From Octopus vulgaris (taxonomy: Eukaryota), in assembly GCA_951406725.2 (NCBI GenBank), contig OX597817.1, positions 124,992,001 to 125,056,000 on the forward strand: a stretch of 64,000 nt of DNA, given 5' to 3'. Shown piece by piece: positions 1 to 63,513 of the stretch (its first letter is position 1; every line of letters starts with the position of its first letter). Made by a program: the position numbers and the translations under genes. Under the pieces are notes generated by a model, which was given only the letters and a program-made list of their open reading frames with translations, ran no database searches and had not been told where the DNA came from.

Positions 1-476
1 TTAACCAAATCAATAGGATATCATATAACATGCTTTGCACTTTGAAACTTATAGAGATAAAATTAGTCTTTTAATCCTTCTAGGATTGGTAGAATAAGTA
101 CCAGTCTCTATGTCATAGGTTCAATTAATCTGACGAAACACTTGAAAGGAGATACCCCAGAATGACCTCAGTTCAATAACTGAAGGCAAGATAGAAACTG
201 TAAAATGCTTGTTTGAGATATATATATGTGTGTATGTGCGTATGTGTATGTATATATATATATATATATAAGTTCAGCAAAAATTTAGATTCAAATGAAT
301 ATGGTACTTAATTTAGATGCACCAGAATTCTGTATGGTGTTATTCATAAAAAATCCATGGGGTAATTATAATCAAAATAAGCAACAAGAATGACTCCGGT
401 AATTTGGTACGATCGTTTCGTACCACATCATTTTATTAAATGTTGTAAGTATTACAACAGTTTTAAAATGCTGAGC

Positions 477-521
<45 letters not shown>

Positions 522-579
522 ATGTGTAATGTAATAATTAAAAAAAAAACATTGGTTTCATATCTAGTGTGAACTAGAC

Positions 580-1743
580 ATTTGCGACCTTATAGGGTTT
601 TACATTCTGAACAGCCTGGGTAATAAATTCCCCTCTGTCCACTTCGGCTTATATAGAGATGATACTTTAGCCATCTCCAGAGGCACTAACCACCATACTT
701 TAGACAGGCTTAGAAAAGACATCATACACACCCTCAACATCTTTGGCCTTAAAATCACCATAGAAACTAACGTCACCTTGGTGAACTTCTTGGATGTCAC
801 ACTTGATCTAGTTAGTGGCACCTACAGACCATACTGTAAACCGAATGATAGGCTATCATACATTAATACAGCCTCCTGCCACCCACTCATAGTGTTCAAA
901 AACCTAATAAAATGTATCAGCAAACGGATTTTGATGTTATCTTCAAATAAAGATAGTTTTAATGCAGTGGCTCCCGCTTACAATGAGGTGCTAGTGGCCA
1001 GCGGGTTCAAAGAGAATATGGTATATATACCAGGATTGAGTAACCATAAATGGAAATGCCACTGCAAGACCTTATGGTTTGCTCCCTGCTTCTCCCTAAA
1101 CATCCGGACATGCATAGGTAAGATTTTTCTAATGCTGATTGATAAGCATTTCATACAATCAAACAAATATAGAAAGATCTTTAACAGACATAATTTAAGA
1201 ATCTCTTTCAGTTGTGCACCCAATGTTAAGAAAAAATTACTTAGCACTCCTAAACTATGGACAGAGGCAGGTTGTTCATGCAGGATTAGAAATGAATGCC
1301 CAGTGGATGGCCATTGTAACACTGAGGCTACAGTGTACCAAGCAAAGGCAGCCTCAAACATAAGCAGCACAAATTACAGTAGCATTAATGCCAAAACAAG
1401 GACACACACTAAAATTTATGTTGGATTTTGTGAATCCAAATTTAAAATTCACCTGAACAATCACAGATCTCCTTTCAAGATCCCAGAGAGATGCATCACA
1501 ACATTCGCAGCATATGTATGGTGCCCAAAGGACAAACATATACCCTTTTAAATCAGGTGGAAATTACTGGAAACTTGTGGACCCTATTGCAATGGAACAA
1601 GACTGTGTAAATTGTGTATGGCAGAAAGATATATTATCCTCATGAACTCATATGAGCCAGGAGGTTACCTGAACACCAGGATGGAAACCATGGGGAGTTG
1701 AACACATTTTCGGAAACTTTTACTTCAAAATTGGAAAAATTAG
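580..1743 (+). pseudogene. PLE reverse transcriptase C-terminal half plus GIY-YIG endonuclease (Hydra-clade-like motifs)
   Basis: One frame reads ICDLIGFYIL...GLYRDD...FLDVTLDL...YINTASCHP, linker CSCRIRNEC (CxCx5C), VYQA...YVG...FK...NH, IRW, CKLC; in-frame stops at 1549 (TAA) and 1699 (TGA). Confidence 0.88.
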
Positions 1744-1848
1744 TTACCAAGCGAAGGAAGACAACATTCTCGGTCATAATGTTTTGAGAGGAATATTTCT
1801 TGAACTATCATGTGTTTAAAAAAACATTCTTTGCAGAGAACAGTTATC

Positions 1849-1913
1849 GTTTAGAGAAACTGAAGACATGTCTAGTTCATGCTAGATATGAAACCAATGG
1901 TATTTTTCTAAAC
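1849..1913 (+). ncRNA. Type I hammerhead ribozyme in the PLE 3' region
   Basis: Stem I GTTTAGAGAAA/TTTTTCTAAAC; CTGAAGA 1860-1866; stem II ATGTCTAG/CTAGATAT; GAAA; stem III ACC-AAT-GGT; predicted cleavage after GTA (1902). Confidence 0.85.
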
Positions 1914-2000
1914 TATTATGTTACACATACAAAAATAAACAACTGCTCTATAGTTTATAGGCTATGCTCTTCTCCTGATTTATGATATTGTAAAGAAGAT

Positions 2001-2037
<37 letters not shown>

Positions 2038-2463
2038 ATGTGTGTGTGTGCTTTGTAAACTACATCTGTTTCCTTTTATATCCAGGTTTTCTCTCAATTC
2101 ATTTTCACTCTATTATTCATATATGCTAATTTTTACATTTCCCTGAAGCATGCTCACTGAAGTTTTTACCATCTTTTATAAATCTTCTATAATCAAAATC
2201 CATAACACACAGCATCACTTCATGCTCAAAGATCATATAGTATGCCTTTCACAGTTAGAGAGAAAACATTTTTGCTAGAAGAGCACTAGCAGTTAGAACT
2301 CCCTAAATGCTTTTTACCCTGTTTTTAATCTAGGACAATGGTTGTGGAACACTTACTTCTGCTGCTAATTTGGCCACATAGGTAACCAAATCTATCAATG
2401 ATTTCTGAAGGTCAGAGAAAAATAATTTTATGTGTATTTTTACTGGCAACTCTTGTGCATCAC

Positions 2464-2503
<40 letters not shown>

Positions 2504-2506
<3 letters not shown>

Positions 2507-2900
2507 CGCAGGAGAGGCTGTGTGGTAAGTAGCTTGCTTACCAACCACATGGTTCAGTCCCACTGCATGGCACCTTGGGCAAATGTCTTTTACTATAGCC
2601 TCGGGCCGACCAAAGCCTTGTGAGTGGATTTGGTAGATGGAAACTAAAAGAAGCCTGTCGTATATATGTATATATATATGTGTGTGTGTGTGTGTGTTTG
2701 TGTGTCTGTGTTTATCCCCCTAACATTGCTTGACAACCGATGCTGGTGTGTTTATGTCCCCATCACTTAGTAGCTTGGCAAAAGAGACCGATAGAATAAG
2801 TACGGGCTTACAAAGAATAAGTCCCGGGGTCAAGTTGCTTCGACTAAAGGCGATGCTCCAGCATGGCTACAGTCAAATGACTGAAACAAGTAAAAGAGTA
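2504..2900 (+). mobile_element. tRNA-derived SINE family A (CORE-like block, internal (TA)n(TG)n)
   Basis: Head ggcgcaggagNggctgtgtggtaag, ccttgggcaa block, tail gactgaaacaagtaaaagag; more than 20 copies or fragments in the window. Confidence 0.9.
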
Positions 2901-2976
2901 TCATCATCATCATCATCATCGTTTAACGTCCGCTTAAACGATGATGATGATGATGATGATACTTTTTTTATATATA

Positions 2977-3008
<32 letters not shown>

Positions 3009-3011
<3 letters not shown>

Positions 3012-3137
3012 GGTGTCCCAAAAAATGTATACACATTGTGGTTCAGCAAAAGAGAACGATAGAATAAGTACTAGGCTTACAAAGAATAACAAATTTACAA
3101 TTATTTAAGGTGTGTATACATTTTTTGGGACACCCTG
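3009..3137. mobile_element. Tc1/mariner-type MITE
   Basis: TIRs CAGGGTGTCCCAAAAAATGTATACACA / TGTGTATACATTTTTTGGGACACCCTG, TA on both flanks. Confidence 0.9.
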
Positions 3138-3639
3138 TATATATATAGTCTACTTTCCTGTCTATCCATCAGTGATACTAGTACACCTCTGATGCATCCA
3201 AAGTTTACTGTTTGGTACACTGTGTGGAATTCCTACCTCTTTTTTTTCTGCAAATGAAGCATAGCTATTTCCCTGGTGTTAATAAAGTCCTTCCATTTTG
3301 CTAACCAAAATTCTTATCTTTGCTCCGTTTACCCTGAGATCTTTTGATTCTAGTCTTAACTTCCAACCTATTAGCTAAATTCTTCACTAAGCTTATTAAC
3401 TCTTTAACTGCACTTCTGTTTATAGCTTCAGTACTTCTGTTTATAGCTTACATAGCTCTCACAAGCTATTTATCTATCTTGACTTTTATTTTAGTGACCA
3501 CCAGACTAATAAGCATTAAACCTAGTCACTGACCATTTTAGATCAATAAAATCTATGGGAGCTTGCTCCTAACTGTGTGTGTCTCCTGTAGCTTCCTTGC
3601 TAAACATGCTTCAATGATTTTGCACAATATATAATTTCC

Positions 3640-4600
3640 AACATTTACTATATAGCAAACAGGATATTTTACCCCAACACGTTTCTTAAAGTATTTTTCA
3701 TTTCGAACATTTTCATGCTAATTATAAAATATAAAACTTCAGCATGTTTTAGAATTTATGATTCTCAGTTTAGCTCATAATGACAGAAACGATATTTTTC
3801 TTCACCTCAGTTCTTCCAAAAAGCTCCATGTTTGGCCATGTAATGAAATATAAAATCTCTCCAATATATTCCCTTTCACCCAATAAAATATATTGGAATA
3901 GGCCATTTAATATATTCTGCACCTTTCAGAATACATAATTTTCGGATTTTCTCAGTGACAAAAACCATATTTTCCCCACCCTATTTCATACAGAATTTTT
4001 CAATTTTTGCTACTTTTAGTTTAGTTATAAAATGTTACAGAATAACTCCCTTTCTCCGACTAAACCCACAGATATAGATCATTAATGGATTCTGCCTCTT
4101 TTAGAATACATAATTTTCAATTTCTCTCACATGACAAATAATATTTTATCCAAATTGGCCCTTACAGATTTTTCATTTTTAGACATTTTCAAGTTGGTTA
4201 TAAAATATTAAAAATGTATATTCAGTCACCTTCTAAAACGTGCTGAAATAGACTATTTAAAATATGCTGTTCTCTTTAGAATACATAATTTTCAAATTTT
4301 CTTGAATAAGAAAATTATATTTTCCTCCACCCCGATCCTTAAAATAATTTTCATTTTTGGCCAATTTCAATCAGATTTATAAAATACAGAATTTCTGTTG
4401 GAATATTCACTCTCATATACAACAATATACTGAAAAGCTTCTACATCTTTTAGTAAATATCATTTTCCATGATATTTTTCACCATCTCTTTTTTCAGTGA
4501 AATTTCCATTTTCCTCATTTCCAAATTATATAATCTGTTACAAAATTTAAAATTTCTGCCACGTTATTCACCCTCACTCAATAAAACATTTAAACCTTTT
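3640..4600. repeat. Degenerate tandem array, unit about 175 bp, about 5 copies
   Basis: GAATACATAATTTTC recurs at 3929, 4104, 4279, with variants at 3752 and 4453. Confidence 0.75.
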
Positions 4601-8571: not shown

Positions 8572-10161
8572 TTAAGGAATCTACCTCTTTTTCATTCATG
8601 CTAAAAAGCTTCAGAACATCCATGTAGAGCAAATGGTTAATTTTTTGATTACTCTTTCTGAACTGATACCCTGTCTTTGCCTTTCTTAATACTAAACTGA
8701 GGGGGATCAAACATAAGACAAATATTAAAGGGAAGAACGAGTCCCCCTGGAAGATTCATGTTTTGATATTAACTTTCCCTGAGAAGTGTGTCACCAGAGT
8801 ATAGATCTAGTTTCCATTTCTTCATGCTACAGCTAATTAATTCTCTTATGTTTGCTATAATGAATATACTCAAACATTCACTCATCCATGAGTGTGGGAT
8901 CATGTCATAGGCTTCCCTATAATCAATCCATGCTATTGTTAGATTTTTCTTCCTAGTCTTTACTTCATTTAGAGCTGCTTCATCAGCATATAACATATTA
9001 TGCATTCCTCTAGCCTTCTTCCTGCAACCTTTCTGTTCTTCTGGTAGTAACTTCTGGTTGTCAAAGTGTTTGTAAATGCTTTCTGAAAGTATTCCTGTTA
9101 ACAGCTTCCACACTAATGATAAGCAAATCATTGGTCTATAGTTGCTAGCTGTATTACCCTTGCTCTTATCCTTCATAATGAATACTGTCCTCCCTCTAGT
9201 CATCCAATTTAGTATTATTCCTTCACTAAGGAAATCTTGAAGTTGTTCCCTAAGGCTCCCATATAAATTTCTATAGCCAGTACCCTTGAACTAAATCTGG
9301 TCCTGGGCCCCTCCAATTCGGCATTTTTCCTAACACTTTACTCATTAATGCACTAGTTAATCTTACAGCTGGCTGCTTTCCACACTTTCTTTAATTATAC
9401 TGCATGTCTATTATGATTGACTGGTTCATCCCAAATATTACTCCAGAACTTTCTAGCTTCTTCCGCATTAGGTTTCTCATCTCCAGTACTTCATTTTCCA
9501 CTATTCAGTTACAAAATCTCCTCTGATCTGTCTTAAGTAATCTATTCTGTTGATACTGATCTATTCTTTTCTGATATCTGGAGAATTTGTCTGCTACTGC
9601 TCTGATACGCTATTTTTACTCTTCTATTACTGTCCCAGATATTTTCTCTGACTAAGTATCTTTTCTCGAGGGAAGATTTGCATCTTGTGTTTCCTAACTT
9701 GCTTGCTTTCCAGGCTTCTATTCTACTCAGATCTAGTCTTAAAGTCTTCCATTTTGTAGTTTCCTTTTCCACGTTTTCTCTTTTCTAATCCTTTCCTGTG
9801 AGATATCTAATATTCTGGTGACTACTACTTCTGCATAGATCAATAAGTTAAGGACTTCTATGTTTTTAGTATTTATCCTATTGATAACACAATCTACTTT
9901 CCTAGTCATTTCTAGCAGCTTCCTTCTGTTGATGCCTTTTAATGCTTTCAGTCTTTTACTCACTACTTCCTACAACTCATCTAAAATCTGATCTTCCGCA
10001 CTTAAATCACTTAAGTCATTGGCTCCAGTTGTCCTTTCCTTATTGGTAGAGCTATTGTTATTTTGTCCCTCAATTTTTTTCTTTGGTTTGAGTTGTATCT
10101 CTTATATTGTTGTTTCATCATCATCATCATCATCATTATTATTATTATTATTATTATTATT

Positions 10162-17386: not shown

Positions 17387-18087
17387 AAGAGAGAAATAAA
17401 AAGTTCTGATTTACCTAACTTAAATAAGAATGATTGGAGAGGTACTGAAATTATATCGAGTGAATTGAATGACCATGTAAGTGAACTCTTGGTAAATAAA
17501 TATACAAATGTAAGTGGGATTCATTTTCATAGCATCAAGTAGGAAATAAACACTAGAGAAGAAAGACACATGCAAATGGTTATGAAAATATTATCCCCAA
17601 GAATGGAATGCATCCTCACCTCTCAATCAATTAATAACAATAATCAATAAATGTGGACGCAGAGTAATTAATGTCAGGGTGAATAGTCTTAATGAGAAAG
17701 ATAGTAATCAAGTTGAAAATTAGCTTTAAGAAGGCCGTTATCACCTTAATGTTCCTCCTAGATGAGTGAGTGGAGCCAGCGTAGTGGCAAAAGCTGAAAG
17801 AGGATAAATTTATTTCTTGATTCCTTTGCTTTTAGTGTTGAGAAAGTGTATAAAATTGAAATAAGATTTATTTGCTGAAGCAGTGATATTTTATGGTTCT
17901 TGGATACAGAGTAAAGTTTGGAAAATTAGTTACGCATTAACTCCTGAATATGTGTTTTCCAGGGAATAACTATAGCTGAGCTGAAAACAACAAAAGGCCT
18001 TAAACATTATCAGTAAATGATAAATTGATAACAACAGAAATAGTTAATTGCTATGGTTTAAGTATATTCTTTGAATAAATTATGAAC

Positions 18088-23949: not shown

Positions 23950-25860
23950 ACATGTACGATTAAATATTAAAATCCTTCAAAATCTTTTAATTACGGTTCA
24001 TCATTCTAGAGTATCAACTTCTTTGGTATATTTGTCCCTATCCTTCCACTTTCTTTCAACAATTACTGGTCCTCTTCCTAATTCATTCTGTTTGAAATAC
24101 ATTTTTTATTATGTCTTTATGGACATTGTCCAAAGACTTTATAACCCAATCGTGACACATATCAGTGGTCAGCGCACATACAATCAGCCTTTGTGGACGA
24201 CTCTTTATTTATTAACAATCAAATTAAAACATTCCACAGTTGATTGCTCACGTATTTTCACTCCGTTTTCTACTGTTATTCAAAATAATTCCTTTGTTTA
24301 TATTCGCTTATTACGATTTTTGTACTTTTTAAAATAAGGTGTTTATAAAACCTGATTCATTAAGGCTTTCACTTTTAAACTCGGTACAATTTGAAAATTA
24401 AAATTATACGCTCCATTCATTTTTTTATTTTGTGGATAGAAACGTAAGATTATAGTTTCAGTTCATGTATAGTTTTGTATTGTATTAACGGTCTTGGCAC
24501 ACTGTGTTCCATAATTTACAAATAGTGATAGATTATACCTTATGACAAATGTATGTTTAAGCTCCTGAAGTCATATATCAAAAGTATTTATGGTAGTCAA
24601 ACTTGGGCATAACCATTTTGCTAAATTAAATAGTTTCTTATTTGTGCGTGTTTCAACAGACATTAGGTAAAATGTAGATATCGTTTTGAATCTTTAGGTT
24701 TGTAACACATGTCTTTTCAATTGAATGCTAACTTTCATTTATAAAATATCTATTAACTGTTATTTTTCTTGACTGTTTCCACTGTAAATATTATTCGATC
24801 CATTAAGTAAGATTTCAAACTATTTTAATTTCTTTGTTATTCACAGAATAAAGTTATCACCAAGAAATCATTTCCAGGTTTCTTTTGACCAAGAGAAATC
24901 CCAAATTTTCGTGGAAGTTGTGATAAAATATTATTTGCAGACAGCCCATAACTAAATTTTCTTCAACTGAGTCTACATTGGTTCCCATGGCTGTTCCGGA
25001 TTTATGTTGATTATAGAATCAGGCATGCAATAGTTATTTTGGCAAAAAATTTTTTGTGCTCTGATTTTAATCCTTTTTTTAAATATGGTTTGATAATTTG
25101 TCCGCAAGATTCTTCAGCACGAATATTTTTGCCTTCTATTTCATAGTTGTGAGGGATGTTTTTATATAAATTCAAAAGATGCAACAGGTATAATTTTATT
25201 TACCGTTGTTGTCACTGTTTCCACATAATATTTAGATTGTCTGTAAGAGAATTTTTAATGTCGTTAAGATATTGTTTCATTAAGTCGCTTAAAAGTTTAA
25301 TCTGACAATAAGTTCTGCATGCTGGGAAAGCTACTAATGGTATTAATTTAAAGATATTTGGTGATTACTCATAAAGAAATATATTTGTGTATCTCTTGCT
25401 ACGCTAACTTTGCTTTTGTGAATTTTTGGTAAGCCATAGAATAGACTAGATTTACATCTAAAATCAATTATATAATCTTATTCTTTATCTATTAATCCTT
25501 CTTAGTATAGGTGCAACAAGATTAAGATTTTTCACTAATTTCAGATGATCGCAGTTAGGAACATTTTTCGTCATATAAACTACTTTCTATAATTGACAGA
25601 ACAAAACTTTTATATATTCAGTATTCATCAAAACAAATGAACCGCATTTTATCGACTTCTTTCATTGTAAATTCATCATCAATTTTGGCACAATTGAATG
25701 GATAAATTTGTGAGTGGCAATATTTGACTTAACTCTCCGTATTACATCGAAAAATTTAAAATGTGACCATTAAAATCCTCAAGTATCATATTTCTATATT
25801 CTGGTGACGATTATTTTATTGCAAATTAATCTCCATTAGGTTGAAGTAAAATTTTGGTTT
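23950..25860 (-). pseudogene. Heavily decayed Penelope-like RT remnant
   Basis: Minus strand reads LYKNIPH (25149-25169), SGTAMGTN (about 24980-24997), FLGDNFIL (RFLDD-type motif), YKPKDSKRYLHF; many stops and frameshifts. Confidence 0.7.
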
Positions 25861-28241: not shown

Positions 28242-28269
28242 TGAATACATACATATATGTATATATTAT

Positions 28270-28702
28270 TCTTTTTACTCTAGGCACAAGGCCCGAATTT
28301 TTGAGGGAGGAGACCATCGATTAGATCGATCCCAGGACGCAACTAGTACTTAGTTTATCGACCCAGAAAGGATGAAAGGCAAAGTCGACTTCGACGGAAT
28401 TTGAACTCAGAACGTAAAGACAGACGAAATACCGCTATGCATTTCGCCCAGTGTGCTAAAGTTGCTGCCAGCTCACCGCCTTACATTCTTTTATACTCTA
28501 GGCACAAGGCCCGAAATTTTGGGGGAGGGGGTCTAGTTAATTAGATCGACCTCAGTACGCAACTGATACTTAATTCATTGACCCCGAAGGGATGAGAAGC
28601 CAAGTCGACCTTTGCGGAATTTGAACTCAGAACTTAAAGACAGACGAAATAATGCTAAGCATTTCGCCCGGCTTGCTAAGGTTTCTGCCAGCTTGCCGCC
28701 TT
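28270..28702 (-). mobile_element. Two adjacent SINE family B copies (alternative tail gggccttgtgcctagagta)
   Basis: Units at about 28270-28482 and 28490-28702, each with a full head. Confidence 0.88.
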
Positions 28703-29869
28703 ACACACATATATATATTATGTCTGCTCCATTATTAGGTACTGCACATATGATGTGGCTTGTGTAGAGATCTAACATTTAGAAACCATATTAGATTTGT
28801 CTCAATCCCCTCTTTTTTTTCAATATCTCATGAGATTGATGCATTCTACGTGCCCATGATTCTTTAAGTCATATGGAGCTGAGTGAAAATGTTATTAAAG
28901 AATATATGTAACTCCTTTCAAACGTGTTGAGAGCTCTTTTTTTTTTCATTTGTCAACTTATTCACACACACATATTAGGTTCTGGTAGCGTATAAAGCTA
29001 GGGCATTTTCAAGGAAGCACTCAACCTAATTTCAAGGCTGTCAACATTGTCGGATTCCAGACGAATACCGAAATTCACCAAGTGTAAAAAATTCTGGTTT
29101 CATAGCAGTAAAGCTATTGTGTGGGTTAAGCGACGAGTAAACTATAATCCAAATAATAAAACAATGCAATCCTTTAACACATCTTTAATGATTCATTTCA
29201 ATTGTCTCTGTACCAAGTCTGTTTGAAGTGAATATTTACGTAATGTTTAAAGTTTTAGACATTAAAGTGGCACTTCATCAGACTTGCATCAAATGTGCGG
29301 TCTTACATTTTGTGTCTCCTCGACGTTGTTGGTTTTTTTTTTTTTTGCTTTCCTTTTGCTTATATAAAGAGGAAACAAAAAGTAAATAAAAGTATGGTTA
29401 TTCTAGAGATCGTGTAGGAAGGATGATGAAGAAGAAGAAGAATGAGAAGGTGGCTAAGGACATTTATTAATGAGGAAAATACAATATATAGTAAATCAGT
29501 GTATCTGGGCGAAAAAAATCTCAGAGCTGTCAGTCAGAACAACACCGTTACAGGTATGAAATTTCATTTGATGAGCAAAAAATTACTTCAGTTTACCACA
29601 AGGTCAGCATTACACAGACAAAAGGGGAGGACGGATGAAAATTGATAACAACAACAGCAAAATACTTATAGCGAGAAGATGATTAAAAGAAATAAAAATA
29701 ATGATAAGAATAATGATACTAGTGATGTGTGCGTCAGAGGAGTGATGTGGGTTGTAGGAGAATGCCATAAACCACATGCTAACCAGCAAACTATTCTGAT
29801 GACCTTAGAATGTCATATGCTGAGACACAAAAGAGAAAAAAGAAATGAAAAATGAGAGGGTAAGCTAAT

Positions 29870-30839: not shown

Positions 30840-31091
30840 CATACATGCATACATAAAAAAAATACTCTGTTGCTGATGTTGACATTTCAATGAAGGGGCA
30901 TTGGATCAAGGTTAGAAACCGGCTCTTTTTCTATTGGCAAGAAATCCTGAAATAAAACTGAACAATCACATACATACATACATACATACATACATACATA
31001 CATACATACATACATTACTACATACATTCATATTATATTCGCAAAACTACATGTGTTCGCAACACACTTTATTCATCGAATAAAGGGTTGC

Positions 31092-31136
31092 TTGAAACAA
31101 GAAGGAGTTTCGACCTGAATGTATGTCTTCAGTCAA
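31092..31136 (-). ncRNA. Degenerate type I hammerhead motif
   Basis: TTGA-CTGAAGA-CATACATTCAGGTC-GAAAC-TCCTTCTT-GTT-TCAA; stem II is defective. Confidence 0.55.
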
Positions 31137-31605
31137 AGGTACATCCAGATCTATGAATCTAAACAGGAACTGAGGTTCTTTGTTATGTAATTCAGTAAAC
31201 TGTTTATCTGCTGATTCATGCCTTTGTCTATTAAACAGATAATTCATCACGTGTACAGAGTGAAAATCTATAAAGAAGAATTTTGGATCTGTATTATAGA
31301 TTCTCTCTGTTCTCCATACACACCGTGAATTATTACTGAGTTGTAGCACTGGCCAAAGAGCCATAATCTCACTGAAAGTGCTCGTACCTCAGTGAATAGG
31401 CTGCTCGTTAAAACATCTTCTGAAAGGAGAAGTTGTTCTCCAAAGATGAAATACTCGAGCGATTGACATATTCATCTTCAAATAAGCTGGAACATTTTAA
31501 GAATGAATATATATATTCATTGATGTGTAGTATAACACGCGCGTACACACACACACACACACATTCATACATATGTACACACATATATATGTGTACATAC
31601 ATGCA

Positions 31606-33336: not shown

Positions 33337-33542
33337 ACATTGCAAACTTCCAAATGTCCCAACACAGTTCTGCAAACAGTGTTTAGTAGGATGTGTTCAA
33401 AGTGCTTTTACAACCTTCTCTTGCACTCTAGAATAACAAACTTTGGTACGGCAGGTTATTTGATGTATAGTAATGATATCAAAAGTGGAGGCGCGTGGCT
33501 TAGTAAGCATCTAACCACTTAACATAAATTTGCTTTGTTATT

Positions 33543-33849
33543 AATAATAAATCTCTGAACGAGATGTAAACAGTAACCGCTTGACAACGTAAAGTATACT
33601 AGCCATCTCAATATGGTTAACCACTATGGGTGGGTGTTACTGTAGCTTTTAGCCCCAGGAGATCATCGTCTCCAGCTGGCTTTAGGCACACTTTCTGTGC
33701 CCTTTTGGTATTTGCAAAGGGAGGTCATCCCTCTCTCGTAAACCTAAGTGATACGCACGAACTGCAGTTTCGAGGTATTTGCCTCTTGTCAACGTACGGC
33801 AATCCCTTAGTGGTTAGCCATATTGAGATGGCTAGTATACTTTACGTTG
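33543..33849. mobile_element. Small non-coding element with a 46-bp inverted repeat, TSD and HHR
   Basis: TSD TTGCTTTGTTATT at 33530-33542 and 33847-33859; IR 33585-33630 vs 33804-33849. Confidence 0.8.
33755..33797 (-). ncRNA. Minimal type I hammerhead motif (core mutated)
   Basis: GTACG-TTGACAA(vs CTGACGA)-GAGG-CAAATA-CCTC-GAAAC-TGCA-GTT-CGTGC; palindromic stem III. Confidence 0.7.
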
Positions 33850-34179
33850 CTTTGTTATTGTTATGTGTTATTTTCCAAAAAGTATATTTTATTTCAGGTG
33901 ATGGTGGTGGTAGTGGTGGCAGTTGTAGTTGCAATGATGGTGACCATAGTAGCAATAGTTGTGTAATACAAGTAGTAATGATTGTATTAGCCTCAATTGC
34001 AGAAGCACTAGTTGTAACAAGAACAGCCGAAACAGTAGTTGTAGTAGTAGTGGTGGTATAAATGTTAGTATAGGGTAACATAAGCAAATTTAAAATAAGA
34101 AATTAAAAACTGAAGAAGTTGACAAAGGGAATGCAGTGACTTTGAAGAATACAAAAGACTGCAAAAATCTTGTGTTATT

Positions 34180-34995: not shown

Positions 34996-35220
34996 AAAGG
35001 TGGCGACCTGGCAGAAACATTAGCACGCCGGGCAATATGCTTAGCGGTATTTCGTCTGCAATTACATTCTGAGTTCAAATTCTGCCGATGTTGACTTTAC
35101 CATTTGGGTCGATAAACTAAGTACCAGTTATGCACTGGAGTCGATGTACTCAACTTAATCCCTTTTTCTGTCCTTGTTTGTCCCCTCTATGTTTAGCCCC
35201 TTGTGGGCAATAAAGAAATA
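34996..35220 (+). mobile_element. SINE family B with 18-bp TSD
   Basis: ACAAATGTATGAGTTTAT at 34978-34995 and 35221-35238. Confidence 0.92.
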
Positions 35221-35833
35221 ACAAATGTATGAGTTTATGTTCCATTGTGAAATGACTTGATATTAAGACCAATAATGAATGGCCCAGGATATGAACCTTG
35301 CCATCTGAGTAATATTTCATACATCATATTAAATGTATTCATTAAACATATTACAATTTTTATAAGAGCGGGCTTCAGTTTGCTAAATAACCTTCTGGAA
35401 AAAATTGAAGAAAAATTTCTGATTGTATAGGTTCAGGTGCAGCTTTGCTATAAGAAGCTTGTTTCACAAGTACATGGTTCTGGGTTCAGTCCCACTGTGT
35501 GGAACCTTGAGTAAGTGTTTTCTACTATAGCCACAAGCAGACCAAACACTTGTAAGTAGATTGGGAAGACAATAACTGAAATCCATGTCGGCATGGAAAG
35601 CAGATATTAAATGACAATGACGACGAGGTTTTTTCGCTCATTAAACACTCACAACGCCCAGTTTGGGAATCAAAACCGTGATCTTCTGACCGCGTGTCTG
35701 CTGCCCTAACCACTGGGCCATTGTGCCTCCACACACACACACATATATATATATATATACATATATATATACACATATATATATATACATATTTATATAT
35801 ATATATATATATAGTTTACATAGAGAGAGAGAG

Positions 35834-35880: not shown

Positions 35881-35883
<3 letters not shown>

Positions 35884-36256
35884 AAGAAGAAAAGAAAATG
35901 GAGATTAGGAAGTTAACAGTTAATTATTATTAACAAATTGGTCATCTTTGCTTCTTACAGCCATTTCAATTAATACTCAATAATTTAATTATGAAATTGT
36001 TCATTAAATTTGCATTTATGCAACATGAGCATAATTTCATCAGTGTAAAAGATGTACCTTGAGATGTTATATGTGGCCCTATCAATTCATTTCAGCAGAC
36101 TGCTGAAATGAATTGATAAGTCCGCATATTTAATGTACAAATTTGTAATTAAATTATTGAGTATTAATTGAAACAACTGTAAGAATTGAAGATGACCAAT
36201 TTGTTAATAATAAATAATTGCTAACTTCCTAATCTCTATTTTATTTTCTTCTTTTA
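35881..36256. mobile_element. Palindromic (fold-back) AT-rich element, resembling a PLE pLTR
   Basis: Arms are reverse complements centred on 36099; the left arm has about 55 extra bp containing minus-strand CTGATGA. Confidence 0.75.
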
Positions 36257-37005
36257 ACTGGATATAAACTATGTAACTTAGCATTTCAGCTTAAGAAACT
36301 GGTAGAATATATACCAGGTTTTACAAAAATGAGTCCTAGGATTGATTTATTTGACTAAGGCAATGCTCCAGCATGGCTGCAGTCAAATTACTGAAGCAAG
36401 TAAAAAATAAAAGGTATCTATCAATACAGAGAATATTTATATCTCTCATGATTATGGAGCTGAAGTCATGAAATTCTGGTTAGATAGCAAAAGAACATGG
36501 ACCACCAAAGTACATAGAAAAAGAATTAATCTTAAAAGTACTAATATTTATTCAGAAGAACAACCATTTTCTTTTTGAGGATAACTTTCACCATCAAAAC
36601 TCCATCTCTGCAATGGAAATGTAAACAGGCCCAATCTTATGCATATTTATTTATGGCTTGTTTCTATATCACTGAGTTCCTAAAATCACAACAAAAATGA
36701 GGTATTCTTCTTTTAAATATATACAAAATAATGGGAAAATATATCTTGACAATTGTTTCCCTTTGTGAAATAAAAACATAGAAGGAAAAGAATTTGAAGT
36801 AATACTTAAAAGAATTAACTTTCAAAACCGCTGTCAGGTAAGATAAATTTAATTTATTTCATTTTCCTTTTCCATCTGTGTGACTGCACTCTTAACAATT
36901 GAAAGCGTAGCATCTGTTGATAAAATGCAAATATCTTCTTTGCATTTTTAAGATAAAGGCCTGAAAGCATTTAGCTTTCAATTTATTTGTGTATAGGCAT
37001 GGCTC

Positions 37006-49513: not shown

Positions 49514-49742
49514 AATAAGTGCATTAGGTATGATTAAAAAACATATGGCCAAATATACAACCAGGACATATGAATAAATACGAACATACAGAAAATAGCA
49601 CTGCTAGGTACCACACATATCTTACATAAAACAATTTCAATAACAATACCAAAGCAGTTCTATATTCAAGAGATGAGGAATTATGTACATTATTTATACT
49701 ATTTATATTTGACAGATATTTGTCCACATCTTGTTTGTTGTT

Positions 49743-49788
49743 AACACAGCATTTCAGCTGATATACCCTCCAGCCTTCATCAGGTGTC
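49743..49788 (-). ncRNA. Minimal type I hammerhead motif (inverted-arm copy)
   Basis: GACAC-CTGATGA-A-GGCTG-loop-CAGCT-GAAAT-GCT-GTGTT. Confidence 0.72.
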
Positions 49789-49830
49789 TTGGGGAAATTT
49801 CGAACCTGAGTTCTCATTCCTAAGGTATTT

Positions 49831-49907
49831 GTGGGGGCATGTGGCATAGTGGTTAAGAGCATAGGCTACTAACCCCAAGATTCAGAGTTCAATTCCAGGC
49901 AGTGACC
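49831..49907 (+). promoter_or_regulatory. tRNA-derived Pol III internal promoter (SINE head)
   Basis: A box TGGCATAGTGG 49842-49852; B box GAGTTCAATTCC about 49885-49896; anticodon-loop-like CTACTAA; acceptor stem does not pair. Confidence 0.75.
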
Positions 49908-49913
49908 AGAAGG

Positions 49914-49969
<56 letters not shown>

Positions 49970-50047
49970 CATAATAAGAATAAGAATAAGAATAATAACA
50001 TCGAAAAATACCTTAGGAATTAGAACCTAGGTTCGAAATTTCCCCAA

Positions 50048-50093
50048 GATACCTAATGAAGGCCGAAGTGTATATCAGCTGAAACATTGTGTT
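50048..50093 (+). ncRNA. Minimal type I hammerhead motif (sense copy)
   Basis: GATAC-CTAATGA-A-GGCCG-loop-CAGCT-GAAAC-ATT-GTGTT; consensus of the two copies restores CTGATGA...GAAACGTT. Confidence 0.7.
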
Positions 50094-52100
50094 AACAATT
50101 AAAAAGATGAGGACAAATATCCATCAAATGTAAATAATATAAATAATACCAAAGCAAACATACCCATGGCACATGTACTCATTAGGGCAGTGAAAGCGTT
50201 TGATAAAAATAACACTACTGAATAATAATGTTGATGATGATGATGATAACAACGACGACGACGACAAAGAAGATGATGATGATGATGATGATGATGATGA
50301 CAACAATATAAATGATGCTGTATGATCCATAACTGGGGCTTTTTACAGGTGCTACTACCACATGTTAGAGCAAGCCTAGAAGTAATGATGACTAAGGGAT
50401 CTCAGCATATTTCCCAATGCTCCGGAAACTCAAGAGTTGAACCCTTACCAATGGATGCAAAATAAAATCTTAGCCAAGAAAATACAATATCAGATGAAAT
50501 TTCAAGGTGACGACACAGTTATAACTCTGCTAAAACTCTAATTCTAATGTTGATTTTCATTTTGAGAATTAGAAAATACTTCAATTCTGAGCATTTTCTG
50601 ACACATAAATCCCAAATATGAGATTACTATTCGCATATTTGTAATAGTGTAGTTGCTTATACATGTAATATTTTCAATGACATTAGAAAAAATCTTTGTC
50701 ATTTGATAATTAAGCAAACTTTCACTTACCAACAAGATACAACCCCTTTTCTTTTCTTCTACTTGTGCAACAGTCCCTACTCCTACTTCTGTATAGCAGT
50801 ATTTAGTGTACCACATCACATATACCTACTAAATATATCTATTTGTCCTCCTCACACAATTGCTTCTGTTTATTCCACACGCCATTCAAAATACGTTTTT
50901 CAGTTCTTACTCCCACAGAACAGAATTTCTTGATCTTTAACTCGCTCACACACACACACACATATAGAAAATACACAAACATGGATATACAAGCACGTGA
51001 ATATGCAGGATATATACATACAGATGCCCACACATACATATATATATACATATGCATACACATACATACATATATACATATGCATACACATACATGTATA
51101 CATACATACACATGCATACATACATACATACACATGCATACATACATACATACATACATACATGCATGCATGCATAGGCACACACACACACACACACTGA
51201 CCCACACACATGCGCACAAACAAGCAAAAAGGAACACAGTGTAAGTAATGGACAGAGTCAAGACTATTGAAAAGGTTGCAAGGCACACCCAAAATTTTAG
51301 GAAAATAAAAATAAGAAATAAGTGGAAATTTCACCAGTGAGTGTGTTACATTATAAGGCACAAAAAGAAAATGACTCTCACCAGACACAACAGAATATGG
51401 TTCAACACACAAACTCATATAAAAAATCTTGCAAACCAAATCCAAAAGCAAAATATTAATCATTAACATTTTCTCAAAAAATTTGTTGTATAAAATTACA
51501 TTCTGAAAGCGATTGCATTGGGAGACTAGCACTATAATGTCGTTAGAAATAGCAATCAAATCTCACCCAAATCATGTCCTAGTGTTTCAAAAAGTAGCCT
51601 GACTACATCAGATATGTGCATGAAAAATTTAAGCAGATGATGTCTAGAAAACTTTTGCACAATCAGGGGTGAATTGGGGCTAAGAACCAACACTAGCAAC
51701 AACGTGTAAGATTCGTCTGAGATGGCCATGCAAAAATATGGATATTTCTCTTTTATAAAAGAATTTTTATACTAAATACAAAGTACAAAGCCTGTAATTG
51801 ACTGGTTTATCTTTTTATTGACCCTGGACAGCTGAATAGGAAAGTCAATAAGAGTAAGGTGTGATCTATACTAAATAAGCTAAATAAAGCAAACTATTTA
51901 GTTTGGCAATCTACCAATAACATCGATCTACTGTTTTTTGAGTCAATGAAGGAGTTTATGAGTGCTCATGCAACTTACTAGAAATAGCAGCTAAATATTA
52001 TCAATTTACTCTACACCACCTTTGATAACTGATTAGCCAAGTAACCTGGGCTAATCAATATCAAAGTTGAATAATATCAATAATAATAATAATCATAATC

Positions 52101-52144
<44 letters not shown>

Positions 52145-52145
<1 letters not shown>

Positions 52146-52845: not shown

Positions 52846-52917
<72 letters not shown>

Positions 52918-53322: not shown

Positions 53323-53728
53323 AAGGTGGTGAGCTGGCAGAAATGTTCGTACGCTGAGTGAAATGCTTAGCGGTATTTTGTCAGCTGCTATGTTCTGAGT
53401 TCAAATTCTGCTGAGGTCGACTTTGTCTTTCATCCTTTCAGGGTTGATTAAATAAGTACCAGTTACGCAATGAGTTCGATGTAATTGACTTAATTCGTTT
53501 GTCTGTCCTTGTTTGTTCACTCTGTGTTTAGCCCCTTGTGGGTAGTAAAGAAATAGGTATTTCGTCTGCTGCTACGTTCTGAGTTCAAATTCTGCCAAGG
53601 TCGACTTTGCCTTTCATCCTTATGTAGTCGATAAATTAAGTACCAGTTACGCACTGGGGTCGATGTAATCAACTTAATCCGTTTGTCTGTCCTTGTTTGT
53701 CCCCTCTGTGTGTGGCAGTAAAGAAATA
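53323..53728 (+). mobile_element. SINE B partial tandem dimer inserted in a family D repeat (about 53262-54010, minus strand)
   Basis: Second unit is headless; junction AAGAAATA|GGTATTTCG at 53555/53556. Confidence 0.88.
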
Positions 53729-57245: not shown

Positions 57246-57847
57246 TATTTCTTTATTGCCCACAAGGGGCTAAACATAGAGGGGACAAACAAGGACAGAC
57301 AAACGGATTTAGTCAATTATATCGACCCCAGTGCGTAACTGGAACATAATTTATCGACCCCGAAAGGATGAAAGGCAAAGTCAACCTCGGCGGAATTTGA
57401 ACTCAGAACGTAACAGCAGACGAAATACCTATTTCTTTACTACCCACAAGGGGATAAACACAGAGAGGACAAACAAGGACAGACAAAGGGATTAAGTCAA
57501 TTATATCGACCCCAGTGCGTAACTGGTACTTATTTAATCGACCCCAAAAGGATGAAAGGCAAAGTCGACCTCGGCGGAATTTGAACTCAGAACGTAACAG
57601 CAGACGAAATACCTATTTCTTTACTACCCACAAGGGAATAAAGACAGAGAAGACAAACAAGGACAGACAAACGGATTAAGTCAATCATATCGACCCCAGT
57701 GCGTAACAGGTACTTATTTAATTGATCTTGAAAGGATGAAAGGCAAAGTCGACCTTGGCAGAATTTGAACTCAGAACGTAACGACAGACGAAATACCGCT
57801 AAGCATTTTGTCCAGTGTGCTAACGTTTCTGCCAGCTCACTGCCTTA
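57246..57847 (-). mobile_element. SINE B partial tandem trimer with a single TSD
   Basis: Units start at 57246, 57430 and 57614 (184-bp period); TSD TAGTTACTATTTCT at 57232-57245 and 57853-57866. Confidence 0.92.
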
Positions 57848-58582: not shown

Positions 58583-58616
<34 letters not shown>

Positions 58617-58987
58617 TGCATGTGTGTGCAAATTACAAATCATATACATATAAATTAGTTCATGCCGATGCCAAAATTTACATGTAGTTTTACCCTAAGT
58701 AATAATTTTCACCAGAATTTGACGAAACAATCACTCTGGCAAATTTAATATAATAAAATCATAAGTTACTCTCTAAACTGCTGAAATGTGTTAAACATTA
58801 AAAAATAATATAGAATTTAAATAATAAAACTGTTTATTTACACAAGTTCATAACTACACGTTTTTTTTTTTATTTGTTGACCAGAATTCAAGTGTATAAT
58901 GTTTAAAATAGTCAGTTGTTCTTATGCTCACATGTTTACATTCAGTTTTTAAAATATATTAAACGCACAGAAATATATAAAAGAACC

Positions 58988-59519
58988 TAGTGGTCACTCT
59001 CTTATATTTGTGTATAAATTTTTATTGTATCCCTGGTTTTTATGCACTAAGCCACTCGGTGTTAAATTGATGGTATTATTAAATTAATATTCAATTTTTT
59101 CACCCTTATTTTTGATTTTAATTATACTGCAGTAAATTTTTTATGAAGTATTTGTTTCCGGAAGTCTTAGCGTGCTTTAGTGAGAGAATTTGAATCATAA
59201 CTGAAAGTATAATTGATTAAACCACACGTGTGTTTGACGTTGTTAAAATTTAGCGTGCGGTTTAATAAATTGTATTCAAGACAAATTCTACTGATGACCT
59301 ATGGATATGTTATGTAAGTAAAATTGCATAATACATTAATAGCGAAACAATTGTCTAGAGTTAATCTACATTTTTGTTATTTTTCATTTGCCCTGCTCGT
59401 TTACGTTAAATGTTGTGCTGATTCTTCCTGGAAACAATTTTTTAGTGGTTAATACCATAGCGGATCTATTTTTAGTGCAAGAGTCGACCATATAGTGGTC
59501 ACTCTCTTATATTTGTGTT
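58988..59519 (+). mobile_element. Retrozyme-like non-coding element: 505-bp monomer plus 26-bp terminal redundancy
   Basis: Direct repeat TAGTGGTCACTCTCTTATATTTGTGT at 58988-59013 and 59493-59518; TSD TAAAAGAACCTA at 58978-58989 and 59520-59531; internal HHR. Confidence 0.85.
59284..59362 (+). ncRNA. Type I hammerhead ribozyme
   Basis: AATTCTA-CTGATGA-long stem II-GAAAC-AATT-GTC-TAGAGTT; intact core, palindromic stem III ACAATTGT, predicted cleavage after 59355; first stem II pair is a C-C mismatch. Confidence 0.88.
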
Positions 59520-60710
59520 TAAAAGAACCTACTCTGTATTTTCTTTGTCAAGTATAAGGCATAAAATAGTTTTCTTGTTTTCTTTTCTCTTCTGAAAACC
59601 ATTTCTTGAAGAATTCTGGAACAGGTAAATAAGTATTGAAGTACTCAAAATTTCTGTGAATTTTGATTAAAATGTTTTTTTCTGTATATTTTACAAATAA
59701 TACTATTAATTGTAACCTTTCTTCAGTTTCATTCTCTGGACATGAAGATTTTTTTCTGTAAAGGCAGGTGGTTATTTGTGAGACATTATTACATTTTTCC
59801 TTTGTTCATATGGACAAAAGAAAAATGTCCATTTTCTTTTCATAGGAGTGAGTAAAATGAAATGACACAATCAGAAATCAAAACCACATTAAAAACAGGA
59901 TCTCCTGTAGCTTACGTTGGGAAAGCTCACAATAAATTAAAACTTAATTACTAGTAAGTTTAGGATAAATTAACTAATCTAAATAATTATTTCTCACACA
60001 GCAGGTCAAAAGTAGTACATTTGTAAGAAAGTTAGTATAGTTAATGGAACAAAAAATTTTATTAGTTTATGACTAGTATTTAATTTCTCAACCACAGTAC
60101 AATGAAATACAATTTTCCCTGGCAAGATTTGAACTGAAAATATAGACAAACTGAAACTAACTATTGTAGAGCGTTTTCTCAGTACTGTTATTGCAGCAGA
60201 TACCATCTTTAAGAAGGTATGAATAATTAATTTTTACTAAGTCCAATACCAACTGTGGTAGAAGAAGAGCACAGTTAATTAAATCAAAGCTTGTTGAATT
60301 AACACTCTATCTTATTAAGAGCAGTGTAATGAAAGTTATCTAGGAAAAGCACACTTGACCTTAGTAATGGGATTTGAGTTGAAAGCTAAAGCATTCAGTA
60401 TTAAATTATGTTTAGTAAGTCTTCTACTCCAGTAGTCTGCTGTGCTGGTTATGACCAGCTGCTGAAATAATAGGGTTGGATTTGACTGCTTAGATTTCAA
60501 CTAACTCCAATCAGATAATGGAAAACAAACAAATTGAAAATAATGAGGATGATAATAATTACAATGATTGTTTCTAACATAGGCACAAGGCCACAGATTT
60601 GTGTTGAGGGGCTTAAGTTAATTACATTGACACCAGTACTTGACTGGTATGTTATTCTATCAATGTTGGAAGAATGAAAAGCAAAGGTAGTCTCAGTGGG
60701 AATAGGACAG

Positions 60711-60752
60711 ATAATAATAATAATGATAATAATAATAATAATAATAATAATT

Positions 60753-60783
<31 letters not shown>

Positions 60784-61308
60784 AATTATTGTATACAGTG
60801 CTCAGGTGCACCACAATTTGTCAAAAGTGAGTATAAAGCATATGCAGTAATGTACAAATGTCTGGGAAGTGAACAGTGTATGAGTCAGATACATGCTTGC
60901 ATGTGTATGGAGGGGAGAAAATCAGGTGTAGTGTTGGCGAATCTCAGGAAGCATGGATATTTTGAAGGATGCAGTGCTCCGACAACTAACAACTGATGCC
61001 GGCAGTTTGCTCCATGCTTCAGCAACTCTTAGCGTGAAAAAATGTTTCTGAAAGTCATGGGAGCTGCGCTGTTTTCTGACTTTGTAAACATGTCCTTGGG
61101 TGTTAGACAGGTGGAGTTTGAAAAAGTGCTCAAACTTATTGTTAGTAAGATGGTTAATAATTTTATGGGTGTCTGCCAAGTCAGCTGCCAGATGTCGGAG
61201 TTTCAATGTATCTATGCCCAGGGAAGTAAGGTATTCAGAATATGGCAAATGCCTGATGGAGGGTATTCTCTTGGTTGCACCCCGCTGAACAGTTTCCAGA
61301 TGATTAAT
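60711..61308 (-). mobile_element. CR1/L2-group LINE 3' end with (ATT)n tail
   Basis: LETVQRGATKRIP..LPYSE.L..LG..TLKLR...DL, TQGH.YK, FFTLRV.EAWSKLP; 3' UTR ends in (ATT)n. Confidence 0.88.
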
Positions 61309-62868
61309 GTAAAAAGCCACAATAAATACTACAAAGAATTTAACCCAATGCTTTAACAATCCTTCTAATCTATATCCCTTAACTATGATTATAATTCAAT
61401 TCTTAGTCACTTTTTCTTAGAATAACCCTATTTTAGTCAAATCTATATAAAACATTCATTAGTCCCTTTTTTATCAGTTCGTTGCTTGCCATTAGCTTGC
61501 ATCCCAGTTTTTTACAAGTAGATATGAGTATATGAGCTTCATATGATGGCAAATTTCTGCAAGTCTCTTGTCTCTGTTATGCATTCATCAGTCATGACTC
61601 TTAGTGATTAATTAGTAGTCTTCATACAACACATATTTAGTTACATTTTTTATTTTGAAATACATCCATAGCAGCAAGTCTAGATCAACCTATAATGGTC
61701 ACTATGAAAAATAACATTCACATATCGCTCAGTAATTCATTGTAAAATTTTAATAGAATAAATTTACATTCACCCACTTTGTTCTCATTCTTTTACTGGC
61801 TTCAGTTATTGGACTACATTCATGCTTTGGTAATGTTTTTGAGGAATTTTATTGACCATAGTATGTATTTTGATTTAGTGAAGAGGCATCAAACTCATCT
61901 GTCTTTATAAGCTGGTTTAAGCATAAACTAAATCTCATGGACTGGATTGAAGCACAAACTTTGTTTTGTTGATTGAACAAGGACAATTATTCCTAAAATG
62001 TGTGTTCATAATGTAGGCTATAGTAAATGTATAAAGGGGTAAACCTATAATATTGTTATTAATAAAGAAAAGAAAGAACATGAAACGTTTTGTGTGAGAA
62101 AAATTCAATCACACACAGACACACACACACATGCAGATACACACACACATACATACATACATACACACATATATACATATGTACATGTGTGTAAGAGCTT
62201 CATATATCATATATAAATATGTGTATGTGCATATATATATATACCTGTGTGGGTATCCCTATATGCATATATTTATATATGTATGGTTTTATTAAGCAAG
62301 TGTCTTTAGAGTAAAGTTGGATGCAGAAATGATCAAAATGATAGTATACACTTCGTGAGAAGACCAAAACTTGATAGAAAGCTTGCACTGTTTCAACAGC
62401 AAAATCTTTCAATACAGTTCATAAAACTACAATTAATTTCAATGAATATCAATATTAATTTAAAACAAAATAGCCTCTGTTAGGCTCAATACTTGATTCA
62501 TAAGCTTCTTTTTTATTGGTGGAGATAGCAAAAAATTCCTTAAGTTGCACAGGTTTGACTGATTGAAAGTAATGATAATCAAAACATTAGTTGATTTTTC
62601 ACTTAGTTAATGCATGAGATATTTTATTAAATAAAAATATTTTTAAAATAATTTTTTTATATAATTGCAAAGGTCCAGCCTAAGAATTGCTGCTGGCCAG
62701 ATCCAGCCTATGGGTCATATGTTTCTTTTAGTCTAATATTTCATTGATGTCATGTTTGTGAAACCAGTAAACTATTGAAGACCAAAGGACATAGCATAGA
62801 AACGATGTAAACAAATACATATATTACAAGTGTATAATTATCTAAAAGAATATGTATAGGTATAGGTA

Positions 62869-63028
62869 TAGGTGTAGCTGTGTGGTAAGAAGCTTGCTTT
62901 CTAACCTCATGTTTCTGGGTTCAAGTCCCACTGCGTGCCACCTTGGGCAAGTGTCTTCTGCTATAGCCTTGGGCCAACTAAAGCCTTGTGAGTGGGTTTG
63001 GTAGACCGAAACTGAAAGAAGCCCATTG

Positions 63029-63069
<41 letters not shown>

Positions 63070-63300
63070 ATCTGTGTGCATATACCTTTGTGTCTGTGTT
63101 TGCACCCCTCTCCACCAACTAACAACTGGTGTTGTTGTGTTTACATCCCTTTAACTTAGCAGTTTGTCATAAAAGATTGATACAATAAGTACCAGGCTTA
63201 AAAGGTAGTCCTGCATTTGATTTGTTCAACCTAAAACCCTTCAAGGTGGTGCTCCAGCATGGCCGCAGTCTAATGACTGGAACAAGTAAAAGATAAAAGA
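62869..63300 (+). mobile_element. SINE family A
   Basis: Complete structure. Confidence 0.88.
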
Positions 63301-63304
63301 TATG

Positions 63305-63341
<37 letters not shown>

Positions 63342-63450
63342 ATATATATATATATTGGCAAAAACGGTAAGATAACAAAAGAGACCTCAATATTATGTAA
63401 ATAGAGGAAATTTATCTATAAAATAATATGTTACAATTACTCAATAGTCA

Positions 63451-63513
63451 AGATAAAACTCTGAGTTTCAGATACCGAAGTGGAAATCCACAACACCATC
63501 TCTTTGGTTATCT
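63451..63513 (-). ncRNA. Degenerate type I hammerhead motif in a pLTR-like segment next to (TA)n
   Basis: AGATAA-CCAAAGA-GATG...TATCT-GAAAC-TCAGA-GTT-TTATCT; perfect stem I, palindromic stem III, first core box differs from CTGANGA at two positions. Confidence 0.6.

Follow-up and report, generated by a model that had tools for sequence, protein, structure and literature searches.

A 64,000-nucleotide stretch of contig OX597817.1 from the Octopus vulgaris assembly GCA_951406725.2 (positions 124,992,001 to 125,056,000, forward strand), referred to as the window, contains repeats that carry hammerhead ribozyme motifs, two families of which belong to coding Penelope-like elements (PLEs). The window has 34% GC, is rich in microsatellites and short repeats, and lies in a genome of 2.8 Gb in 227 contigs. 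A model reading of the letters (the sequence-only reading) had flagged nine hammerhead sites. The motifs are readable at all these positions by inspection, and a genome search with each site places eight of the nine in genome-wide repeats, named here A (1849), B (31092), C (33755), D (35953), E (49743/50048), F (59284), G (63451), and H (408). The features are listed below, with open reading frame, untranslated region, pseudo-long terminal repeat, reverse transcriptase, and target-site duplication abbreviated as ORF, UTR, pLTR, RT, and TSD; the numbers of candidates (range 29–3,272) are those of a first-look search and are not copy numbers.

269..478, minus strand: family H, 5'-truncated half copy; 1715 candidates, 96-97% identity.
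505..583, minus strand: inverted short copy of the family A 3' end, from blastn against A loci; it abuts the 5' truncation point of A.
577..1999, plus strand: family A, 5'-truncated PLE of autonomous type with its 3' UTR/pLTR; 324 candidates.
568-1548, plus strand: family A ORF with RT YRDD motif, thumb, Cys linker, and GIY-YIG start; a frameshifted continuation runs to ~1760.
1849..1913, plus strand: type I hammerhead of A, with CTGAAGA at 1860, a near-palindromic stem III, and a predicted cut after 1902.
31047..31249, minus strand: family B, old repeat (68-80% identity); 29 candidates; hammerhead at ~31090-31138.
33543..33849, minus strand: family C, retrozyme-like 355-bp monomer, 5'-truncated (33543-33804) with a 46-bp inverted arm (33804-33849); 2375 candidates, best matches mostly 95-98% identity.
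33754..33798, minus strand: type I hammerhead of C, with a U3-A8 core, 4-bp stem II, 6-bp stem I, and palindromic stem III.
33530-33542 and 33847-33859: 13-bp TSD of C.
35881..36272, minus strand: 3' end of family D; its hammerhead (35955-36050) has a long stem II, and 36124-36272 is an inverted arm; 1277 candidates.
49655..50147, no single strand: whole family E element; 3272 tail and 1819 head candidates.
49655-49830, minus strand: inverted long tail of E, with a hammerhead at 49743-49787.
49835-49908, plus strand: tRNA-like head of E, A box at 49842 and B box at 49885.
49914-49998: (AAT)n linker of E.
50009-50147, plus strand: short tail of E, with a hammerhead from 50048.
49645-49656 and 50145-50156: 12-bp TSD of E.
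58990..59519, plus strand: family F, retrozyme-like 505-bp monomer, ~1.05 units; 1070 candidates.
59284-59362, plus strand: hammerhead of F, with a palindromic stem III.
58978-58989 and 59520-59531: 12-bp TSD of F.
61543..61600, minus strand: flagged weak motif, single-copy, without acceptable stem III.
63356..63802, minus strand: family G, solo pLTR/3' UTR of a young autonomous PLE; 2342 candidates, 96-99% identity.
63451-63513, minus strand: hammerhead of G, with U4->C family-wide and G5->A private to the window copy.

Families A and G are the 3' ends (pseudo-LTRs) of PLEs that code for an RT and a GIY-YIG endonuclease. In family A, the 327-residue frame upstream of the hammerhead harbors the YRDD motif, the thumb region, the Cys linker, and the first part of a GIY-YIG-like domain, and the longest copies of the family run through this PLE-type frame. 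It is 47% identical over 328 residues to a 717-residue PLE ORF that possesses a YxDD motif and a GIY-YIG-like C-terminus. In family G, the GIY-YIG-like ORF found upstream in locus L175 yields 21,053 candidates, some of them inside such 717-residue open frames. The hammerhead of G stands ~200 nt behind the stop codon of intact 717-residue ORFs in all four loci fetched, and in two of the four G also precedes the ORF as a pLTR; for A, the 3' copy alone was seen in pLTR position. The hammerhead of A has one extra nucleotide ahead of stem II and folds better than its shuffles (z -4.66), while the core of G reads C-C-G-A-N-G-A (U4->C), intact elements included. In the Atlas, the three clusters nearest to the 717-residue ORF contain HTH_animal in 25-38% of their members, and GIY-YIG or RVT_1 appears further down. 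Pfam analysis of 50 of the ~240 locus and window ORFs returned a weak GIY-YIG match (the L175 ORF piece, E=0.004), two DDE transposases, one RT piece, and weak unrelated matches. From the appearance of their motifs, the A and G elements are presumably Nematis-like.

A second young PLE type was found through Pfam GIY-YIG. Its open frames are 781 residues long and its 3' UTR carries a U3-A8 hammerhead of its own in 13 of 30 GIY-YIG loci (L283 and L288 among the loci of this type); in these 30 loci it has no tail in common with the window families. Old RT fragments akin to this type are located in the window at 25224-25507 (minus strand) and at 35212-35427 and 36505-36819 (plus strand), the last two on either side of family D. 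Another RT fragment (RVT_1, E=6e-9) at 8772-9290 (minus strand) is probably a relic of a long interspersed element (LINE).

The sites at 1849, 31092, 33755, 35953, 49743, 59284, and 63451 had been read as type I hammerheads in unrelated repeats, most with a tiny palindromic stem III, and the family alignments bear this out. The majority sequences of all seven families (A-G) fold as a type I hammerhead, with no core mismatch in A-F and a single one in G, the U4->C change. All 11 family core positions are kept in 19/35 copies of A, 10/15 of B, 18/20 distinct copies of C, 23/33 of D, 30/48 of E, 24/31 of F, and 21/29 of G, and position H17 is never G in six of the seven families. The core is more conserved than the non-core positions in B (96% vs 79%), and also in F, D, and A, among copies that are not independent of each other. 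Except for one 43-nt match between H and F (E=0.001), no sequence is detectably common to the eight families. Most window copies are decayed relics: G5 is changed to A at 50048 and 63451, U16.1 to C at 49743, and the 10.1-11.1 pair is broken at 31092 and 59284.

Motif density was compared with shuffled sequence by using a purpose-made type I descriptor, which admits C3-G8 or U3-A8, tolerates a single additional nucleotide next to stem II, and accepts a stem III that is short and self-complementary. This descriptor is post hoc, being written with the candidates already seen; an earlier and stricter version gave one perfect-core match in the window and was relaxed afterwards. With a perfect core and a score of at least 12, the window has four matches vs a mean of 0.16 in local dinucleotide shuffles (maximum 2, none of 100 reaching 4), and with the additional filter for a palindromic stem III three vs 0.11 (none of 300 reaching 3). 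At a loose setting (at most one core mismatch, score of at least 8), the window has no excess, with five matches vs 3.49 and 26 of 100 shuffles reaching five. The hit density above shuffled controls expected by the sequence-only reading is thus found at the strict setting and not at the loose one. In 36 arbitrarily placed 10-kb stretches (360 kb), seven perfect-core matches were obtained vs 0.73 in 30 shuffles (maximum 3), and four vs 0.23 with the palindrome filter. The perfect-core excess both in the window and in these 360 kb indicates that hammerhead motifs are a genome-wide trait, and the window, with three palindrome-filtered matches in its 64 kb, is not clearly richer than the arbitrary stretches with their four in 360 kb (p=0.075). 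No Rfam hammerhead family occurs among the 150 of 183 window matches listed.

The two weaker flagged motifs had different fates. The one at 408 belongs to a genuine family (H, see below). That at 61543 has itself as sole genome match and folds no better than shuffles (z +0.77); it was rejected as a hammerhead repeat and is likely a chance occurrence. The fourth perfect-core match of the window, at 17838 (17830-17880, plus strand, U3-A8, score 16), had not been flagged. It has no match in the sequence compared, no genome-wide search having been made for it, and may also be due to chance. At least a dozen further hammerhead types, mostly with a palindromic stem III, were met in the flanks and in the arbitrarily placed stretches (loci L233, L240, L252, L260, L150, L280, L288, L143, and L121 among others). 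One abundant minimal-hammerhead family outside the window has seven copies in the 360 kb (L225:4472+, L244, L247, L249, L252 twice, and L258) and is also found behind a PLE ORF in L254. It carries A6->U in 34 of 36 distinct copies, with position 7 free to vary (T16/C8/A7). In the window, a common short repeat forms head-to-tail arrays (220 and 184 bp) at 28268-28705, 53372-53711, and 57246-57797, which gave no hammerhead match.

Families C and F are non-coding and consist of head-to-tail monomers with one type I hammerhead each. Upstream of the C copies, their own 3' end recurs in 10 of 25 loci with a period of 354-357 bp, and upstream of the F copies the F 3' end does so in 12 of 30 loci with a period of 504-509 bp (each set includes an overlapping pair); no ORF is common to the upstream regions of the C and F loci. 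In these loci, each 3.2 kb long, the copies are dispersed, of ~1.3 units or shorter, and form no long arrays. The GC content of C is 43-45%. Monomers of three copies of each family fold better than 40 shuffles (z -3.1 to -8.1 for C, -2.6 to -4.7 for F), as does the opposite strand, so that this measure is not discriminating. Assembled contigs of four runs guessed to be RNA cover 27-29 of 29 bins of a C stretch, with a summed depth that is greater toward the 3' end. Ends, strand, and level cannot be read from contigs, and a DNA control was lacking, so that this coverage speaks neither for nor against circles.

A sister of C, 72% identical to it, is located in L184 (620-1420). It comprises 2.3 head-to-tail units of 353 bp that are 99% identical to each other, with two complete units and hammerheads, C3-G8 cores, and additional inverted copies. 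A third relative of C is found in locus L016. Between C and the L184 sister, the core pair changes from U3-A8 to C3-G8, a stem I pair is changed on both sides, and the palindrome of stem III is swapped for another, with stem II identical. Such covariation, together with palindrome-preserving changes of stem III, corresponds to the needs of catalysis and dimer formation, and these compensatory changes suggest selection of the motif as a ribozyme, for which they form the best evidence. Within F, an A-U to G-C compensatory change of stem I is seen in 9 of 29 rows. Stem pairing amounts to 94.5% in F and 81.6% in B, and to 25-44% when the stems are slid. The stem covariation anticipated by the sequence-only reading exists between C and its sister and as one event in F, and does not rise above shuffles in B.

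Family E is an element resembling a short interspersed element (SINE), with a tRNA-like head and a hammerhead tail, inserted with Penelope signatures. A head of ~76 nt is followed by the (AAT)n linker and by a 176-bp tail that carries a minimal hammerhead with a 2-bp stem III. Among 30 loci picked by the head alone (the query locus and one overlapping pair included), head and tail follow each other in 27, and an inverted tail lies ahead of the head in 14. All 13 distinct head-selected pairs combine a long arm, ending at 174-176, with a short one, ending at 130-155. The A and B boxes of the head differ by about one mismatch from the consensus quoted in the available part of PMC8969392, with correct spacing. 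The head is not called as a tRNA by ARAGORN (0 of 20 loci) and has no Rfam tRNA match in five loci, no T4 run is present in the one full copy checked, and the tail has no match in a small sample of 34 + 30 PLE loci. The 5' end of E is a small hairpin, which forms the junction of many head-to-head inverted pairs (L040, L050, L054-L056, and L333-L361). This arrangement suggests that the second arm or strand may be primed by fold-back at the terminal hairpin. Octopus tRNA-derived retroposons were reportedly described by Ohshima & Okada in 1994, and E may be one of those families.

In the window copy of B, the first pair of stem II is broken. For D, no linked ORF was found in 25 loci selected by the upstream region. 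The window copy of H keeps the 3' half of the motif near 408, with GAAA, a palindromic stem III, and the 3' strand of stem I, and has lost the CTGATGA box at a (TA)n tract; the full core including this box is found in 14 of 14 other H loci.

The families are brought together by the way they are inserted. Each shows a fixed 3' end ~90-430 nt behind the hammerhead, a variable 5' truncation, and frequent inverted arms, and the 3' ends fall in two classes. Inverted upstream copies occur in 7/29 loci of A, 9/24 of C, 15/24 of D, 22/29 of E, 14/29 of F, and 7/24 of G, and target duplications of 12-13 bp are present in the window for C, E, and F. According to the available parts of the literature, fixed 3' ends of two classes, 5' truncation, inverted arms, TSDs, tandem monomers, and pLTRs are hallmarks of PLEs (PMC8557442; PMC8969392), and PLEs may carry an optional tail of 30-40 bp (PMC8557442; PMC11167929) that reflects two RT start sites (PMC11167929). 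The difference between the two arms of E fits this optional tail. From these data, the motifs are very probably type I hammerheads located in the 3' ends of PLEs (A and G) and in those of short elements for which a use of Penelope enzymes is likely (C, E, and F, and probably also B, D, and H). The Penelope link that had been proposed from the sequence is thus direct for A and G and drawn from the insertion signatures for the others. The proposal of a diverse set of hammerhead retroelements holds as well, except that these are not all small and non-autonomous, since 1849 and 63451 mark the ends of protein-coding PLEs.

All these insertions may have been made by a PLE RT/endonuclease from RNA uncut, or religated, at the hammerhead. 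The GIY-YIG endonuclease would nick AT-rich or microsatellite DNA; the RT would start near the RNA 3' end, copy through the uncut or religated hammerhead, stop early, and often fold back, thereby making an inverted arm. With a stem III this short and self-complementary, the ribozymes would cleave chiefly as dimers within tandem transcripts, and minimal hammerheads are described as cleaving weakly and only as dimers (PMC4209133). In C and F, cutting of dimers would release monomers able to circularise and to be copied more than once round, a scenario to which we give about an even chance. Mussel retrozymes of 350-390 nt do cleave and circularise (PMC7229834).

Several observations weigh against parts of this scheme. 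Pfam has no match for the whole 717-residue ORF or for P0001, and a PDB search was likewise empty. For B, C, D, E, F, and H, the ~1.3 Mb and three protein baits examined revealed no autonomous partner with the same 3' end. The core is not more conserved than the flanks in C, E, and G, and covariation within families is thin, with the one event in F and none above shuffles in B. The 10.1-11.1 pair is missing in 22 of 29 rows of F; together with the U4->C core of G, this implies that catalysis may be weak. In the available parts of two experimental studies, Anolis Poseidon inserts in vitro with no need of hammerhead cleavage (PMC11167929), and eight of nine Xenopus dimers do not cleave (Li, Clavereau & Pollet 2026, bioRxiv 10.64898/2026.07.22.740005).

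The strongest alternative leaves the PLE origin untouched and concerns the catalytic step alone: the hammerhead fold would persist chiefly as a landmark by which the PLE protein binds or initiates, and cuts would be rare, with monomer tandems arising from uncut multimeric transcripts rather than from circles. Every hammerhead-bearing copy was reverse-copied across the predicted cut site, full-length head-plus-tail copies of E require uncut RNA, and successful families have fixed cores that are non-canonical (U4->C in G, A6->U outside the window). Hammerhead cutting has moreover been described as protein-assisted and dispensable for insertion in vitro, PAc insertion being unimpaired by catalytic mutants (PMC11167929). 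The C3-G8/U3-A8 covariation between C and its sister and the retention of a palindromic stem III fit catalysis and dimer formation instead, as does the cleavage of the mussel retrozymes, and this alternative is credible at distinctly less than an even chance. It is unlikely that all eight families are merely 5'-truncated ends of autonomous PLEs, none being independently non-autonomous. This holds for A and G, and the pyrimidine- and TA-rich upstream region of D resembles the UTR of G; it is already contradicted for C and F, whose upstream sequence is their own 3' end at a 355- or 505-bp period with no ORF, and for E, which starts with its tRNA-like head in the head-selected loci. Chance matches in an AT-rich, hairpin-rich repeat landscape, to which the null result at loose settings, the lack of Rfam hammerheads among the matches listed, the single-copy motif at 61543, and the five of eight folded repeat-family window copies that are no better than shuffles would lend themselves, are refuted as a general explanation by the strict-match excess, the fit of all seven majority sequences, the pLTR position, and the core covariation, and are hardly conceivable beyond 61543 and possibly 17838.

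Returning to hammerheads carried by PLEs and by short elements that borrow their enzymes, a more daring picture may be drawn, which we consider plausible and still somewhat short of even odds. E would be a Pol III-transcribed, tRNA-headed SINE driven by Penelope rather than LINE enzymes through a pLTR-derived hammerhead tail; the fixed U4->C and A6->U cores of the most successful elements would reveal the fold as a landing pad for the RT; and the 355-nt retrozymes (C and its sisters) would keep a catalytic core and make circular RNAs. A PLE-driven tRNA SINE, if true, would widen the known SINE partners. The known range of PLE hammerheads and retrozyme-like monomers now takes in a large, apparently octopod genome; roughly extrapolated from the 360 kb, its motifs would number in the tens of thousands. 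Intact PLEs and hitchhikers, both young, occur there alongside natural variants of the core, a situation suited to asking whether PLE transposition depends on hammerhead cutting.

The sequence-only reading knew of no description in cephalopods. For the giant squid, 235 Rfam 'hammerhead 1' loci have been counted, with no element context in the available text (PMC6962438); for octopus, no account of such hammerhead elements was found in the literature, the supplements of the cited papers possibly listing cephalopod examples. A 2026 octopus repeat annotation reports 31 PLE families with recent activity; the main text of that work, as far as available, does not contain 'ribozyme' or 'hammerhead' (PMC13282606). 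The kind of element is already known in other animals, including the additional nucleotide separating positions 9 and 10.1, the U3-A8 pair, inverted pairs, and PLE-derived retrozymes. Possible novelties are the host lineage, a tRNA-headed SINE of PLE style, and the fixation of U4C and A6U cores.

The closest known system is that of Cervera & de la Pena 2014, who described minimal type I hammerheads in the pLTRs of metazoan PLEs (PMC4209133). The likeness extends to the pLTR hammerhead (A and G), the palindromic stem III, the extra nucleotide between A9 and 10.1 (A and E), the U3-A8 variant (C and the 781-residue PLE type), opposite-strand pairs 100-700 bp apart, and many sequence-unrelated families per genome, mostly as solo truncated copies. 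In the available text of that paper, the present host lineage is not named, and neither the fixed U4->C of G with its additional nucleotide on stem II's 3' side nor the fixed A6->U of the family outside the window is mentioned. With the endonuclease-positive PLEs that have a Zn-finger-like linker, Neptune and Nematis (Craig et al. 2021, PMC8557442), A and G share the RT, the Cys-rich linker, and the C-terminal GIY-YIG, as well as pLTRs, inverted copies, a tail, and microsatellite-rich sites, the clade being likened by motifs. As in the Schistosoma Sm-alpha/Sj-alpha elements (reviewed in PMC6765202), E has a type I hammerhead behind a putative Pol III promoter. It is, however, dispersed, with a 5' head, an (AAT)n linker, and a 2-bp stem III, whereas Sm-alpha is tandem, and it has PLE-type inverted arms and tail, whereas the review, in its available part, names no PLE partner. 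Metazoan non-LTR retrozymes (Cervera & de la Pena 2020, PMC7229834; Li, Clavereau & Pollet 2026) differ from C and F in that the latter are dispersed, of ~1.3 units or shorter, and known here from genomic copies alone, and no homologous PLE pLTR was found for C or F in the ~1.3 Mb. A PLE origin of retrozymes has been put forward by Li 2026. Otherwise C and F resemble the known retrozymes, being non-coding, with one type I hammerhead per head-to-tail monomer, a structured RNA, coexistence with PLEs and, in the sister of C, two complete units.

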